Of a DNA stretch of 64,000 nucleotides, positions 58,141 through 63,923 are shown piece by piece; positions within the stretch are counted from its first letter, which is position 1; every line of letters begins with the position of its first letter. The DNA is taken from the sequence record PQ351811; one strand, written 5' to 3'. This stretch comes from Shigella phage SSG23. The position numbers and the translations under genes were made by a program. Below the pieces are notes generated by a model that saw nothing but the letters and a program-made list of their open reading frames with translations, searched no databases and was not told the DNA's origin.

Positions 58141-58609
58141 AATTGATATCTATGCGGGTGGACCTTATCCATCTGGCGAGTTGAGTAATTTCAATAAAAG
58201 ACCATTCCGTCTATTTGGTTGCGATATTAACAGCACAGAAGGATTTTTACAGGGGCTAAGATTTAAGAACCCTCAGAGACAAAGAGAAATCTTTTTGATG
58301 CACGGTGGCAAAGCAAAAAGAACCGGAAGGACTGAAAAGATAGAGAATCACATGCTATATTTTCAGGGTCGCCCGATTCATCGAATGAGTGAGCATTATT
58401 ACAGACTGGTACATCTGGCATTTGTTACGATGGCACGGAATAACCCAGAATTTTGTAAAGCATTACTCGCTACCGGAAATAAGAAATTGCGTCATAGCAT
58501 AGGTGGAACTGATCCGTTAAAGACCATATTGACCGAATCGGAATTTTGTAGTATCCTCAATGATATTCGTGAACGTTTAACAAAACGAGGTGAAAATGTC
58601 AATTCTTAA
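58130..58609 (+). CDS. NADAR-like (YbiA/DUF1768 family) protein
   Basis: 159 aa; ELSNF, STEGFLQGLRF (cf. YbiA DFSNF...TSEHYFQAQKF), KALLATGNKKL fit NADAR pattern as recalled. Confidence 0.5.
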   Translation: MTSEIDIYAGGPYPSGELSNFNKRPFRLFGCDINSTEGFLQGLRFKNPQRQREIFLMHGGKAKRTGRTEKIENHMLYFQGRPIHRMSEHYYRLVHLAFVTMARNNPEFCKALLATGNKKLRHSIGGTDPLKTILTESEFCSILNDIRERLTKRGENVNS

Positions 58610-60092
58610 TATCATTAATCAGCTTGCAGCGACCGACAAAACATCGCTGAAAGAAAAGATCCTGAAAGAATCTGCAAGCAATGAAACGCTGAAAGAATGC
58701 TTTTATCTGGCATATTGCAAACAGGTTACGTTTGGCGTAAAGAAATACGATAAACCGTCGCGTTATTCATCTGTGTTGTCTTTATCCGGTGCATTACAGG
58801 TCTTTAAAAATAAACTTGCCACGCGTCAAGTAACTGGTAATGCCGCATTACAGCTAGTTACCGATACTCTGACTTGCTTGTCAGAAGATGATGCTAAAGT
58901 TGCAATGATGGTCCTGAATCGTGATCTGGAATGCGGTTGTTCCGCTACCACAGCAAACAAGGTATGGAAGAAGCTGATTCCTCAGCAGCCGTGCCATCTT
59001 GCATCGTCATGTTCTGATAAGACTATTGCCAATATCAAATATCCGGCGTATGCACAACTTAAAAGCGATGGCGCTCGTGGTATGGCTGATATTGACGGGG
59101 AAACATTAGCAATCTATACCCGTTCAGGTAATACCTATCAGGGGCTGGATGATTTGTTTGCTGTTTTAGAGCGTCTACGAGGCCGTGGAGTTGTTTTAGA
59201 TGGTGAGTTGGTATATATGCCTACCCTTTCGCAAACACCAGCGCAGAACTTCGTTGATAGCGTTTATGATGGTACTCTGTCATGGATATTTGAAGAAGAG
59301 GAAATGCCATTAACGCCAGTAGCGGAAGCAGTGAAAGAATCAGTTGTTGCAGATCGTCAGACCGGAAATGGTATCCTTAACAAATCACTGAAAGGAACTA
59401 TTCCGAAAGAAGAAGCCCAATGTATTGTATACACCGTCTGGGATGTTATCGACCGTGATGTGTATTACGGAAACGAGAAAGCAACGAAGCAGTATAAAGA
59501 TCGATTTGAGGAACTAAAACAGATTGTTGAAGAACTTAACGATCCTCGTGTTCAGATAATCGAAAATACTGTAGTTAACAATATCGATGAGGCTCGCGAA
59601 GTATATCATCGCTATGTAAACATGGGATTAGAAGGTATTATCCTTAAAAATTTACATGGTGTATTTGAAGATCGTCGCAGTAAAGATCAGGTTAAATTTA
59701 AAGAAGTGATTGACTTCGACGCGGAAATTGTTGATGTATATCCGCATAGTAAAGATCCTAACAAGGTAGGCGGTTTTACTGTCCGTAGTGCGTGCGGACG
59801 AATGACGACTAACACCGGATCGGGATTGACCGACACCACAACCGAAAAAGATGATGATGGTATTGAACGTGTAATTCCGTTCGATCGTCGAAATGAACTC
59901 GACCGAGAAATGTTATGGGCTGACCGTCATAACCTGATTGGAAAAGTCATTGAGATGACATGCAACGGGTATATCCGCAGCAAATCACGTAAAGAAGATG
60001 AACCGGAGTTCTCTTTATTTCTCCCGATCATCAAACGTATTCGCTACGACAAGACCACTGCAAATACAGTAAAAGAGGTATTCGATGTGTGA
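58596..60092 (+). CDS. 30: ATP-dependent DNA ligase gp30
   Basis: NRDLECG, ANKVW, YPAYAQLKSDGARG (ligase KxDG), VLDGELVY, GIANKSLKGTI, EGIILKN, KFKEV match T4 gp30. Confidence 0.9.
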   Translation: MSILNIINQLAATDKTSLKEKILKESASNETLKECFYLAYCKQVTFGVKKYDKPSRYSSVLSLSGALQVFKNKLATRQVTGNAALQLVTDTLTCLSEDDAKVAMMVLNRDLECGCSATTANKVWKKLIPQQPCHLASSCSDKTIANIKYPAYAQLKSDGARGMADIDGETLAIYTRSGNTYQGLDDLFAVLERLRGRGVVLDGELVYMPTLSQTPAQNFVDSVYDGTLSWIFEEEEMPLTPVAEAVKESVVADRQTGNGILNKSLKGTIPKEEAQCIVYTVWDVIDRDVYYGNEKATKQYKDRFEELKQIVEELNDPRVQIIENTVVNNIDEAREVYHRYVNMGLEGIILKNLHGVFEDRRSKDQVKFKEVIDFDAEIVDVYPHSKDPNKVGGFTVRSACGRMTTNTGSGLTDTTTEKDDDGIERVIPFDRRNELDREMLWADRHNLIGKVIEMTCNGYIRSKSRKEDEPEFSLFLPIIKRIRYDKTTANTVKEVFDV

Positions 60093-60561
60093 TAATGAAG
60101 GGGCGAAAGCCCCTAAACCTAAAAAATTGTCAAAGAAAGAGCAACGCCAGATCCTGAAAATGAAATACGGTGGACGTTGTGCCTATTGTGGCGAGGAACT
60201 AGGGGATCGCTGGCACGCAGACCACATCAAACCAGTATTGCGACGCTCAAAAGTAGTCTATGATGAAAGTGGACGAATTGCCCGTAATGATGATGGATCG
60301 TGGAAGTATAAGGTTGTAGGAATGCATAAACCGGAGCACGATATACTTGATAACATGAATCCGGCTTGTGTGCAATGCAATCTTTACAAAAGCTGTATGG
60401 GCTTAGAATACTGGCGTAAGTGTATACGCGAGAACTTCCAGAAGTACATTCAACGTAACATGGGATTACGTGCGGCTAAACGCTTTGGCTTACTTTCAAT
60501 CCACGATCAGCCAGTAGAATTTTATTTCGAAAAGTACGAGCGCGAGCATCAAGAAAAATAA
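60085..60561 (+). CDS. HNH endonuclease (free-standing)
   Basis: 158 aa; CAYCGEEL...HADHIKPV...NMNPACVQCNLYK classical HNH motif. Confidence 0.7.
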   Translation: MCDNEGAKAPKPKKLSKKEQRQILKMKYGGRCAYCGEELGDRWHADHIKPVLRRSKVVYDESGRIARNDDGSWKYKVVGMHKPEHDILDNMNPACVQCNLYKSCMGLEYWRKCIRENFQKYIQRNMGLRAAKRFGLLSIHDQPVEFYFEKYEREHQEK

Positions 60562-60574
60562 TTCAAAAAAGTTG

Positions 60575-60603
60575 TTGACAGGGGATCGCCGATCCCCTAT
60601 ACT
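60575..60603 (+). promoter_or_regulatory. PeSL-type promoter TTGACA-[GGGGATCgccGATCCCC]-TATACT
   Basis: Palindromic 17-bp spacer with two GATC sites. Confidence 0.6.
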
Positions 60604-60637
60604 GCACACATACCGAAACGAACTAGGAGAATCAATT

Positions 60638-60817
60638 ATGAACTTCAACGAAATCATCGCTAAAATCCGCTACAACGAAGAAACCATTGAACTGATGCAA
60701 AACAATATCACCAATGGTTATATGATTGCAGCGTCACAAGAAATCATTGATTTGACAGTAGCAGAAAATGCTCAGTTGAAACATCAACTTTCAACGGCTG
60801 GCGTGATTGTTATGTAA
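60638..60817 (+). CDS. hypothetical protein
   Basis: 59-aa ORF from RBS-proximal ATG. Confidence 0.4.
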   Translation: MNFNEIIAKIRYNEETIELMQNNITNGYMIAASQEIIDLTVAENAQLKHQLSTAGVIVM

Positions 60818-60834: not shown

Positions 60835-61167
60835 ATGGCAAAAGTTCAGGTAGGCGAGGTCTTCAAAATGGAAGACCACACCGTGGAAGAGATGAAAGGC
60901 GCGGTATTGAAAGTAACTAATTCAATGTGGCGTAGTGTGCTTTACATCAACTTTATCGACGGTGATGTGTGGTGGGCTAGTGATAACGTTAAATGGGGCG
61001 TTAAATGGGACGAAGAAGGCAATATGGCCATCAAGTTCTACAAAGGTCATACTCACTGGTTAGGAACAGAGGATGTTGTAGAAGTTCTGGCGGTTGATGT
61101 TATGCCAGGAGAGATCGAAAGTCTTAGCGGAACCGCAAAAGAAGCATTGACACGCCATTTTGTGTGA
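60835..61167 (+). CDS. hypothetical protein, member of HxHW...LAVDV paralog family
   Basis: 110 aa; ...GHTHWLGTEDVVEVLAVDV... Confidence 0.45.
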   Translation: MAKVQVGEVFKMEDHTVEEMKGAVLKVTNSMWRSVLYINFIDGDVWWASDNVKWGVKWDEEGNMAIKFYKGHTHWLGTEDVVEVLAVDVMPGEIESLSGTAKEALTRHFV

Positions 61168-61224: not shown

Positions 61225-61416
61225 ATGTGTGGTCTTAAAATGGTTGCTGAATATAAGCAAACTGGTAATGTCATGATGTATCGTCGCAATGCTAACGAAG
61301 ACTGGAAACCTTCCAACCGAATTAAATCCATTCAGACGTTTATGAATAACATCAAAGAAAACCTTTTCGTTAAGCGTGCTGGTGTTGGACATTGGGAAGT
61401 TTACGAAGTTGTATAA
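61225..61416 (+). CDS. hypothetical protein
   Basis: 63-aa ORF, RBS GAGGA upstream. Confidence 0.4.
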   Translation: MCGLKMVAEYKQTGNVMMYRRNANEDWKPSNRIKSIQTFMNNIKENLFVKRAGVGHWEVYEVV

Positions 61417-61432
61417 TTTTGAGGAAATTGTT

Positions 61433-61726
61433 ATGGAACATACTAATTTGTTTGTAGCCGAACCTTTCGTTGAAGGCAATAAAAATCTGGCTAATACCGT
61501 TATTCTTTATGAAGATTGGATCTTTTACATCGACGAGCATTTAGATGTATTTTGTCGCACAGATAAAAGCGACCAATTTCCAATTGAAAAAAATCGAACA
61601 TCAAATCATTGGTACGGCGGGAATGACGAAACCGACCTAGCTATTGTTCTCGAATCAGGCGTAGAATCTGAACATGCCAATGAAGTGGCAGACAAATTTA
61701 TGAAATACGCATATAAAGCATTATAA
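61433..61726 (+). CDS. hypothetical protein
   Basis: 97-aa ORF from RBS-proximal ATG. Confidence 0.4.
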   Translation: MEHTNLFVAEPFVEGNKNLANTVILYEDWIFYIDEHLDVFCRTDKSDQFPIEKNRTSNHWYGGNDETDLAIVLESGVESEHANEVADKFMKYAYKAL

Positions 61727-61731
61727 AGTTG

Positions 61732-61760
61732 TTGACAGGGGATCACAGATCCCCTATAAT
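61732..61760 (+). promoter_or_regulatory. PeSL-type promoter TTGACA-[GGGGATCacaGATCCCC]-TATAAT
   Basis: Palindromic spacer 61738-61754 with two GATC sites. Confidence 0.6.
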
Positions 61761-61794
61761 GCACACATACCAACGAGATATAGGAGAATCAAAA

Positions 61795-61962
61795 ATGTTC
61801 CAGACTAAAGAAGAATGTGAAGCATACATTGTAGCAAACCACGGTGAAGACTACCTGAAATTCGATATCGTAGTAGCACAGAAGATCACCGGAATGGTTG
61901 CAAAATATCTGGGTGTTAAAGAAGGTTACTATCCGAGCAACGCACCAGAAATTAACAAATAA
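61795..61962 (+). CDS. hypothetical protein
   Basis: 55-aa ORF from RBS-proximal ATG. Confidence 0.35.
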   Translation: MFQTKEECEAYIVANHGEDYLKFDIVVAQKITGMVAKYLGVKEGYYPSNAPEINK

Positions 61963-62026: not shown

Positions 62027-62206
62027 ATGAAAGCTATCGAAGTTCAGAAGTACATGGAAATCATCGTTGAAGGTAAAGCACATTTAGTGTTGACTACTCA
62101 CGTAGGATATGATAAAAATGTACATATGCTGGTAGACAATATCGGTTGGATGAAGTTTAATCCTAACGAGAATATACAAGCTCAAGAAATGACCATCCCT
62201 TTCTAA
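62027..62206 (+). CDS. hypothetical 59-aa protein
   Basis: RBS ACGGAGA then ATG; below ORF-track cutoff. Confidence 0.35.
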   Translation: MKAIEVQKYMEIIVEGKAHLVLTTHVGYDKNVHMLVDNIGWMKFNPNENIQAQEMTIPF

Positions 62207-62218
62207 GAGGAATATATT

Positions 62219-62497
62219 ATGATGCGAATTACTGCAACACTGGATAAGACACACAAAGAAAGATTTTTCGGTATGATCTTAAAAACGCCGATTTTCGATA
62301 ATTACCTTTATGTTGACTATGAAGGCCATATTAGCTATAAATGTAAAAATGATATTCGTGATTCCTTTGGTGATAAATCACAAGCTGATATTCATGACCA
62401 CTGGTGGACCTTCGACGAACCTTTACGGATTATCGCAGTTGATGTAAAAACAATAAAAGAAGCTGATAAGGTAGTTAACGATTATGAGCAAATTTAA
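62219..62497 (+). CDS. hypothetical protein, member of HxHW...(I/L)AVDV paralog family
   Basis: 92 aa; ...IHDHWWTFDEPLRIIAVDV... Confidence 0.45.
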   Translation: MMRITATLDKTHKERFFGMILKTPIFDNYLYVDYEGHISYKCKNDIRDSFGDKSQADIHDHWWTFDEPLRIIAVDVKTIKEADKVVNDYEQI

Positions 62498-62693
62498 AGA
62501 CTACAAAGCATATCAACAGATCCTGCGAGTATATGACGCGGAGTTCGCCGAAAAGATGATGGAAGATGCATCAAAATGCCCGTCCTTTTCTGGAAACAAG
62601 AATCATTATTCGACCGGGATTGTATCGTGGAAAGAAACCGCATATACTAAACAATGGATAGATGTGTTTTCAAAAACTCTTGAATGGTGTTAA
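62484..62693 (+). CDS. hypothetical protein (MSKFKDY tandem paralog 1)
   Basis: 69 aa. Confidence 0.4.
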   Translation: MSKFKDYKAYQQILRVYDAEFAEKMMEDASKCPSFSGNKNHYSTGIVSWKETAYTKQWIDVFSKTLEWC

Positions 62694-62695
62694 TT

Positions 62696-62911
62696 ATGAG
62701 CAAATTTAAAGATTATCGAGCATATAAAGCGATCTGCGATATATTCGATGAAAAGACCGCTCATGCAATGATGGAAGATGCAGAACAATATGAATCATTC
62801 GTCAATTCCAAAGATTGCGCAGTAAACGGGATTGTGTGTTGGAAAGATACAAAGTATGAAGAAAAATGGATTACCGTGTATTACGGAGAACTAGAATATG
62901 AAATTAACTAA
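62696..62911 (+). CDS. hypothetical protein (MSKFKDY tandem paralog 2)
   Basis: 71 aa. Confidence 0.4.
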   Translation: MSKFKDYRAYKAICDIFDEKTAHAMMEDAEQYESFVNSKDCAVNGIVCWKDTKYEEKWITVYYGELEYEIN

Positions 62912-63218
62912 AAAGATTTTTCCAGAATTGCGTAACTGTCTGTTACTGGTTACTGAATATAAGCCGTATACGATCTACTTGTACGTTGATGAAAATCTGA
63001 AAATCCGTTACTATGATTATACTTCTCCAGTGATGAAATCATTTGCTCACTCGATCGCAAATAACTGTATGAATCATAATCATTGGGTATCAGAAACGGA
63101 TGACGATGCGTCAGAAGTTGTAGTGGTTGCATGGAATCTATCACCAGCGGAAGCAGATCAAGCACGCATTAAGCATTATGCGAAAAACAATTGGTTTGAC
63201 CTTATAAGTGAGGACTAA
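62898..63218 (+). CDS. hypothetical protein, divergent member of HxHW paralog family
   Basis: 106 aa; ...NHNHWVSETDDDASEVVVVAWN... Confidence 0.4.
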   Translation: MKLTKKIFPELRNCLLLVTEYKPYTIYLYVDENLKIRYYDYTSPVMKSFAHSIANNCMNHNHWVSETDDDASEVVVVAWNLSPAEADQARIKHYAKNNWFDLISED

Positions 63219-63222
63219 TATT

Positions 63223-63501
63223 ATGTTCAAAGTAGGTGATAAGTTTATTCTTAGTCGTGATATTCTCCCTAATCTGAAAGGTTGTATCATCAATCCTAGT
63301 AAAAATTCATGGTTTTATCTGTTTATCGATGATGATCTAAATGTACGCGCCGAATATAAAGAAGGTCTTCGTACTGGTCTAGGCTTCTTTCACGATCATG
63401 ACCATAGCCATTGGCTAAACGGTGGATTCGAAGCAACGGTGTTAGCGGTTGATGTGACTTACACCAACATCATAGAAAAATATCAAAAAATTATTTTATA
63501 A
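63223..63501 (+). CDS. hypothetical protein, member of HxHW...LAVDV paralog family
   Basis: 92 aa; ...HDHSHWLNGGFEATVLAVDV... Confidence 0.45.
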   Translation: MFKVGDKFILSRDILPNLKGCIINPSKNSWFYLFIDDDLNVRAEYKEGLRTGLGFFHDHDHSHWLNGGFEATVLAVDVTYTNIIEKYQKIIL

Positions 63502-63507
63502 AAAGTG

Positions 63508-63536
63508 TTGACACCGGATAGGGGATATAGCATAAT
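63508..63536 (+). promoter_or_regulatory. PeSL-type promoter TTGACA-17-CATAAT inside palindrome GGGGATAT...ATATCCCC
   Basis: Near-identical to 16991-17019. Confidence 0.55.
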
Positions 63537-63582
63537 ATCCCCATCGAAACGAGATACACTTTCTAACTAGGAGAATCAAATT

Positions 63583-63870
63583 ATGGCATACATCACTATC
63601 ACTCTGAAAGTTAACAAATTCGCTCACGCTGCACACGAAACCGACAATGCAATCCGCAACAATAAGTTTGCACGTCTGGTACGCGATGCAGTAGCTAAAG
63701 AGTTCAACTTCAAATTTGCAGATGGTAAAGTTATCACTAAATGGACTCATGACGGCGAAACTAAAGTAGAACTTGCTGACAACTTCGCAAATCAGGAATA
63801 TGCGCACCGTCGCATTAATGAAATTATCAGCGATGAACTCTACTACGGCGTACAGGAAGGACTGTTTTAA
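63583..63870 (+). CDS. hypothetical protein
   Basis: 95-aa ORF. Confidence 0.4.
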   Translation: MAYITITLKVNKFAHAAHETDNAIRNNKFARLVRDAVAKEFNFKFADGKVITKWTHDGETKVELADNFANQEYAHRRINEIISDELYYGVQEGLF

Positions 63871-63898: not shown

Positions 63899-63923
63899 CA
63901 TCCAACTATTGAGGATAATACTA

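Follow-up and report, generated by a model that had tools for sequence, protein, structure and literature searches.

A diverged tandem gene pair of the PHROG 8471 family in the hyperplastic early region of Shigella phage SSG23 and related Krischvirus genomes

The gene pair and its genomic setting

The stretch of DNA that was analysed (64,000 nucleotides of Shigella phage SSG23, sequence record PQ351811; hereafter the window) ends in 2.3 kb that match Shigella phage SFHK24 at 100% identity; about 57 other genomes of the genus Krischvirus (RB49-like, T4-type) match them at 92-97%. Here, in the hyperplastic early region between the DNA ligase gene and alt, lie two small genes of the same strand, called copy A and copy B in this work, with a spacer of only 2 nt between the stop of A and the start of B (Table 1). 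A sequence-only reading had described them as adjacent ORFs of 69 and 71 aa that share an MSKFKDY start, and on both counts it was confirmed. Its common motif, G(I/V)V(S/C)WK(E/D)T(A/K)Y, is likewise present, as GIVSWKETAY in A and GIVCWKDTKY in B, although the "(I/V)" ambiguity is superfluous, since both copies have I. Pairwise alignment, which that reading had proposed as a check, gave a similarity far beyond chance (BLASTP, 32/68 identities or 47%, gap-free over 68 of 69 residues, E 2e-21), with 57% identity between the coding DNAs. Both proteins match the PHROG 8471 profile (phrog_8471) over positions 3-71 of 71, with E 1e-35 for A and 1.4e-35 for B, and an HMM of the family, hereafter family X, finds exactly two copies in the 64-kb window, A and B.

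The period from one start to the other is 212 bp. An identical block of 20 nt is present at both starts and is a substrate for unequal recombination between A and B; in addition, the residues MMEDA found in the two proteins are encoded by a common 15-mer. In the deposited annotation of SFHK24, B begins at an in-frame ATG at 62684, 12 nt further upstream, which makes it a protein of 75 aa. The corresponding codon in relatives is ATG, GTG or TTG, whereas the ATTATG start is kept and aligns with the start of A, so that 62696 is the better start for B. The same two genes are found at the same position in RB49 (RB49p202 and RB49p201; NP_891773 and NP_891772) and in phi1 (ORF202 and ORF201), as in other Krischvirus genomes, with A 87-96% identical to that of the window; all are annotated as "hypothetical protein", and our literature search found no publication discussing RB49p202/p201 or their orthologues.

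Table 1. Features of the ligase-alt region in the window.
Feature	Position	Strand	Remarks
DNA ligase (gene 30)	58590-60092		
HNH endonuclease ORF	60085-60561		158 aa; annotated in SFHK24 and RB49; 8-nt overlap with the end of the DNA ligase gene (3')
First PeSL cassette	60568-60640		85% identity with the cassette at 61725-61797
Y-family ORF	60835-61167		
Y-family ORF	61376-61726		
PeSL206/205	61725-61797	+	promoter/stem-loop cassette; 12/12 promoter match
g205 (RB49p205 orthologue)	61795-61962	+	first gene of the unit; 55 aa; no assigned function
g204 (RB49p204 orthologue)	62027-62206	+	second gene of the unit; 59 aa; no assigned function
g203 (RB49p203 orthologue)	62219-62497	+	third gene of the unit; 92 aa; Y family (Y HMM E 1.6e-33)
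Identical 20-nt block ATTATGAGCAAATTTAAAGA, first copy	62481-62500	+	at the start of A
Copy A (RB49p202 / phi1 ORF202 orthologue)	62484-62693	+	69 aa plus stop; conserved paralog
Allelic divergence island relative to RB49	62600-62905	+	60-77% nt identity, background 95-100% (sliding window)
Identical 20-nt block ATTATGAGCAAATTTAAAGA, second copy	62693-62712	+	at the start of B
Copy B, allele B1 (RB49p201 / phi1 ORF201 position)	62696-62911	+	71 aa; variable, exchangeable paralog
g200 (RB49p200 orthologue)	62898-63218	+	sixth gene of the unit; 106 aa; Y family
g199 (RB49p199 orthologue)	63223-63501	+	seventh gene of the unit; 92 aa; Y family
Third PeSL	~63495-63585	+	TTGACA, 17 nt, CATAAT; stem-loop GGGGATAT...ATATCCCC; 11/12 promoter match
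Y-family ORF	63923 onward		cut by the end of the window

The pair belongs to a group of seven packed genes (g205, g204, g203, A, B, g200 and g199) that fills the interval between the second and the third of the promoter/stem-loop cassettes (PeSLs) of this region. The upstream cassette, PeSL206/205, is 93-97% identical to that of RB49; its promoter reads TTGACA-17-TATAAT, and a GC-rich stem of 8 bp lies between the two boxes (61732-61760), the stem-loop folding at -15.1 kcal/mol (z -2.65). In a lacZ reporter, PeSL206/205 of phi1/RB49 reached about 13,000 Miller units, and the stem-loop of a PeSL was found to be a strong terminator (Arbiol et al. 2010, PMC2839356). The downstream cassette folds at -20.2 kcal/mol (z -3.26); by its sequence it is predicted to close the seven-gene unit and to drive the gene that follows. 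Within the unit, the 3' end of g203 overlaps the start of A by 14 nt, and the 3' end of B overlaps the start of g200, again by 14 nt. As in a PeSL-driven early module, a sigma70-type promoter with its stem-loop thus stands directly upstream, in the hyperplastic region. We infer that the seven genes would yield one early transcript with coupled translation, and the promoter sequence, together with the reporter assay on the orthologous PeSL, points to early transcription of A and B.

Several further features of this region are worth recording. Krischvirus and a T4-like metagenome contig to which it is otherwise unrelated (L008, 3675-3752) share a PeSL-like stretch of 78 nt at about 91% identity, and the one long stretch that resembles that contig at the DNA level is the HNH endonuclease ORF. 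The gene g205 occurs a second time further downstream, with 88-89% identity, at a distance of about 4.3 kb in RB49 (RB49p191; L002, 10419-10586) and of about 3.3 kb in ECD7 (L005, 5567-5734), a position that falls past the end of the window.

A second family of larger paralogs, Y (92-116 aa), is interleaved with A and B. Its proteins share the motifs YLY[VI]D, H-x-H-W and V[LI]AVDV and fall into PHROGs 15972, 9345, 17255 and 16486, which have no assigned function. The Y HMM matched four ORFs of the window directly; the ORF at 61376-61726 was placed in the family via matches to its orthologues in two other loci (L027 and L030), and the cut ORF at 63923 via its likeness to RB49p197 and matches in L028-L030.

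Alleles, copy number and age of the pair

By tblastn the family was found in 56 phage records, all of them Krischvirus, and in 53 of the 56 it occurs at two places. The two copies differ markedly in their variability. Orthologues of A are 87-100% identical across the genus, while B is divided into at least four allele lineages, and the entropy of B (0.45-0.71) exceeds that of A (0.14-0.17). The allele of the window, B1, is also that of Phi1, GEC-3S, ECD7, phiS and ELT4, whose B is 93-99% identical to that of the window; B1 has 58% amino acid identity (dN 0.35, dS 1.46) to the RB49-type allele, B2, which starts with MGIQSQFKDY, and each of the two is nearly invariant over many phages, with 97-100% identity within an allele. 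Two further types known from metagenomes (P0008, P0009) are 63-81% identical to the others, and chimeric forms exist as well, namely P0008, P0010 and the B2 of phage Skers, which has an MSKFKDY start. RB49 itself carries alleles other than those of the window, A2 (85 aa) and B2. Compared with RB49, the island of allelic divergence comprises codons 39-69 of A and the whole of B, and breaks off abruptly where the next gene begins; in codons 39-68 of A, dS between SFHK24 and RB49 is saturated and dN is 0.117.

The RB49-type allele of A (A2; L002, 6785-7042, also in L017, L021 and L022) has lost the stop and gained 16 residues; it overlaps the start of B2, and co-occurs with B2 and a longer A-B junction. 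A deeply divergent allele is also found for g203 in Phi1 (L015) and GEC-3S (L024), at 1220-1504, with 56-57% amino acid identity, g203 being 95-100% identical elsewhere; this form is another allelic cassette in the A/B unit.

Such polymorphism invites comparison with the PeSL-bounded ORFan modules of RB49 and phi1 (PMC2839356; Comeau et al. 2014, PMC4122927), which lie in the same hyperplastic region, use the same cassettes and, like the A/B locus, show presence/absence and replacement polymorphism among close relatives. Unlike in PeSL-module exchange, however, the break-points at the A/B locus lie inside the coding sequence of A and at a gene-gene junction, not at PeSLs, and unlike in the duplication of a PeSL-flanked module, it is a gene within a module that has been duplicated.

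Copy number, the other point that the sequence-only reading had marked for comparative genomics, does vary: genomes with A and B, with A only and with B only were all found, whereas three copies occur in no genome and zero copies in none of those examined. Phages JSE and vB-Eco-KMB43 have A only. Their B slot (L003, 2713-3036 and 3051-3386, in JSE; L004 in KMB43) holds an additional Y-family gene instead, joined at the TAATTATG junction that precedes B elsewhere, and the sharing of this junction indicates that families X (A/B) and Y swap at one site. The B-only state is seen in one metagenome contig of 6.4 kb (MAVA01000018.1, L027), which could be mis-assembled; it carries B1, whose junction with g203 falls within the shared 20-nt block, just as would be expected if one 212-bp unit had been lost by unequal recombination.

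The dN/dS ratios, taken in the annotated frames, are low throughout: 0.04-0.13 among A orthologues, 0.0-0.2 within B alleles, 0.24 between B1 and B2, and 0.26 between A and B. Both copies are intact and, as these ratios show, selectively maintained under purifying selection.

The earlier reading had taken the two genes for a recent tandem duplication with divergence. The tandem duplication with divergence holds. The copies are adjacent, co-oriented and significantly similar, and they are closer to one another (46-50% identity) than to any outgroup (at most 45%), although in a neighbour-joining tree (62 columns), where bootstrap support is 100% for A as a clade and likewise for B, the node uniting the two has only 43%. 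Related phage lineages outside Krischvirus have a single copy in every case. The word "recent" fails, since the A-B dS is 1.98 or, through saturation, cannot be computed, as against a background of 0.06-0.22 for the flanking genes (SFHK24 versus RB49), the two paralogs are shared by 53 of the 56 records, and B has itself already split into several lineages. The tandem arrangement is thus older than the radiation of the sequenced Krischvirus genomes.

The PHROG 8471 family, its conserved core and predicted fold

Word-indexed searches over 5.8 billion proteins and an exhaustive HMMER search over 1.84 billion representatives delimit family X as about 35 clusters among the 5.8 billion proteins, all of 61-96 aa and unnamed, and returned neither domain fusions nor named homologues. 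PHROG 8471 is matched by 11 of the 11 members of the family alignment, the distant ones included, and the distant members are all single-copy. One of them (P0014) lies in a different T4-like contig (L008), again between ligase and alt, the DNA-level likeness of that contig to Krischvirus amounting to little more than a PeSL; another (P0013) is on a short contig (L007). The remaining carriers are Autographiviridae, where the gene belongs to the early left-end region and in some contigs is near SAM lyase genes: Koutsourovirus (Enterobacter phage SDFMU_Pec and several contigs of about 44 kb), Pokrovskaiavirus (fHe-Yen3-01, gp5, and ISAO8), Serratia phage Kaonashi and Aeromonas phages (Aerosvirus). 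The only relatives in BFVD are the uncharacterised fHe-Yen3-01 gp5 and phiAS7 gp15, both confirmed by the family HMM, and no member turned up in a pattern scan that covered 185,579 species of bacteria and archaea through representative genomes.

Most members of the Melnykvirinae type have a conserved basic N-terminal extension (M[IT]K[RN]KRKINKQ...), for example P0017, P0029, P0030, fHe-Yen3-01 gp5 (L025, 3069-3344) and phiAS7 gp15 (L026, 9495-9770); it is missing in P0016 and in the T4-like and Koutsourovirus members. As to the Y family, a member is found directly downstream of P0013 (L007, 344-649) and two are near P0014 in the T4-like contig L008, while none is present in the X loci of Autographiviridae. 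A strict functional link between X and Y was rejected on this pattern, Y adjoining X in T4-like contigs and being missing from the Autographiviridae loci.

Searches for known relatives were negative. Neither A, B nor the distant members had a match in Pfam, NCBIfam or PADLOC; a PDB sequence search with two profiles gave only an insignificant match to an RxLR effector; the PDB fold search had no significant match for the models of A and B; and no likeness in sequence or fold to a characterised member of the known anti-defence or defence families was found. The motifs of family X were not found in the supplements of the accessory-gene screen of Silas et al., and Krischvirus is not covered by the HIDEN-SEQ preprint.

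Across the family, A22, M25, A29, V47 and W58 are invariant, and M26, F35, I46, W49 and T52 nearly so. Variation is concentrated elsewhere, as is seen best in the Koutsourovirus clade, in which mean entropy is 0.28 for residues 1-30, 1.78 for residues 31-45 and 1.21 for residues 46-62, and median dN is 0.05 in codons 1-32 versus 0.69 in codons 33-59. In the Koutsourovirus-like genes (L014 and L032-L036; about 87-170) this corresponds to an island of about 100 nt with about 48% identity, between flanks of 84-96%. Recent positive selection is not demonstrable in this clade: the variable segment, too, keeps a dN/dS below 1, and its dS is likewise raised. Raised dS combined with dN/dS below 1 suggests old alleles that are kept and shuffled, as under balancing or diversifying selection, and the pattern would fit recombination-shuffled old alleles and, equally, relaxed constraint on a loop. 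A diversity-generating retroelement (DGR) as the origin of the segment was rejected, with no template repeat and no reverse transcriptase nearby; direct repeats of 40 nt or more were absent from both loci searched (L033 and L014), and no neighbouring gene of the hypervariable X loci had a reverse-transcriptase Pfam match.

AlphaFold2 (AF2) models of A (from a 10-sequence alignment) and B (from a 29-sequence alignment) both have a pLDDT of 93 and a pTM of 0.8; for B the value is 93.1, and five of five models exceed 91. The two proteins are predicted to have one four-helix topology, with helices at about 8-14, 19-30, 43-50 and 55-68 and a loop at 31-42. By these positions, the variable segment corresponds to the loop and helices 3-4 of the predicted fold.

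Origin and possible role of the pair

The explanation that we favour as a whole, and to which we give slightly better than an even chance, is that A and B are old, selected paralogs, B being a cassette, that serve as an early host-binding factor. Its evolutionary side, that is, an old pair with a conserved A and a cassette-like B, and with gain, loss and swap driven by recombination, is well supported. The cassette, represented by alleles B1-B4 or by no B, is swapped by homologous recombination while A is conserved; the break-points fall in A's conserved 5' portion and where the following gene begins, and unequal recombination in the shared 20 nt can delete one unit.

On its own, the functional side falls somewhat short of an even chance. 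It holds that the products would be early counter-defence or host-takeover factors, or the target of a host sensor, with two specificities. Produced immediately after infection from the early promoter, they would work stoichiometrically, through binding to a host macromolecule; the scaffold would consist of helices 1-2 together with the invariant I/V-W-T-Y-W skeleton, and the loop at 31-45 together with exposed positions of helices 3-4 would make up a specificity surface under long-term diversifying or balancing selection. The A/B pair would then give Krischvirus two specificities, one fixed and one swappable. The cassette behaviour of B suggests a role in the phage-host arms race. One might speculate further that PHROG 8471 is a new family of early effectors with a small four-helix fold of its own, transferred horizontally between T4-like (Straboviridae) and T7-like (Autographiviridae) phages of enterobacteria, whose hypervariable loop and helix-3/4 surface tracks a polymorphic component of host immunity and which Krischvirus has doubled so as to have a fixed and an exchangeable specificity, a possible but doubtful extension.

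Alternatively, two alleles that had already diverged might have been brought by co-infecting phages and put in tandem by unequal or illegitimate recombination, in which case most of the A-B divergence would be older than the tandem arrangement. Recombination has indeed made the region a mosaic in which alleles are sharply bounded and cassettes exchangeable, A-only and B-only genomes exist, the node uniting A and B has a bootstrap of just 43%, and PeSL-mediated shuffling is documented for the genus (PMC2839356). Such an origin is nevertheless unlikely in our judgement, as A and B resemble each other more than either resembles any single-copy relative, as the 20-nt block at their 5' ends is identical and their junctions are built alike, and as no single-copy Krischvirus has a B-like gene in an independent context, the deletion-type contig MAVA01000018.1 apart.

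The function could also be a different one. That family X consists of small nucleic-acid-binding regulators of early gene expression or DNA metabolism, and not of host-protein binders, would agree with the basic N-terminal extension of the Melnykvirinae members, but we think it rather improbable.

It might also be argued that B is redundant and drifting towards loss, with A the only functional copy, given that JSE and KMB43 have no B, that metagenomes contain frameshifted or truncated variants (P0011, and P0012 for A) and that B is the more variable of the two. We find this improbable. B is intact in every examined two-copy locus (14 from Krischvirus isolates or viral contigs, the window included, and three from metagenome contigs), its dN/dS is low both within alleles and between B1 and B2, its core residues are invariant, its AF2 models are confident in five of five runs, and one contig has retained B and lost A. 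As for a recent tandem duplication that is only now diverging, the adjacency of the genes, the 212-bp period and the identical 5' ends speak for it, but it is hardly credible in view of the saturated A-B dS against a background of 0.06-0.22, the orthology of both copies in 53 of 56 records, and the split of B itself into at least four old alleles.

The favoured explanation, old paralogs with an exchangeable B, recalls the gene accordions formed by counter-defence genes. Srikant, Guegler and Laub (in 2022) reportedly observed segmental amplification of T4 dmd-tifA against toxIN, and Elde and colleagues (in 2012) are said to have observed amplification of K3L in a poxvirus. In these cases, as in A/B, small early accessory genes change in tandem copy number when short homologies recombine, and the copies then diverge. 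They differ in that the accordions are recent, near-identical, under acute selection and have a known target, whereas A/B is ancient, 47% identical and present in at most two copies. The other comparison is with SAM lyase, Ocr and Alt, the early anti-restriction or host-takeover proteins of T7-like and T4-like phages. Family X occupies the same niche of early, non-essential, small genes, lying close to SAM lyase in contigs of Autographiviridae and, in T4-like phages, upstream of alt, but has no likeness in sequence, profile or fold to a solved or curated family.

Diverged tandem ORFans in the hyperplastic region of a T4-type phage are in themselves ordinary, and these are already present, as "hypothetical", in dozens of deposited genomes. 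Family X is found in phage sequences only (lytic isolates of the T4 and T7 types and metagenome contigs that are phage-like), always in early regions, and combines an invariant core with a sharply delimited hypervariable surface. Tiny as a family and with confidently predicted structures, it is a concrete candidate for anti-defence or host-takeover screens, and the natural variants with A and B, A only, B only and alleles B1-B4 make a direct comparison of host range possible.
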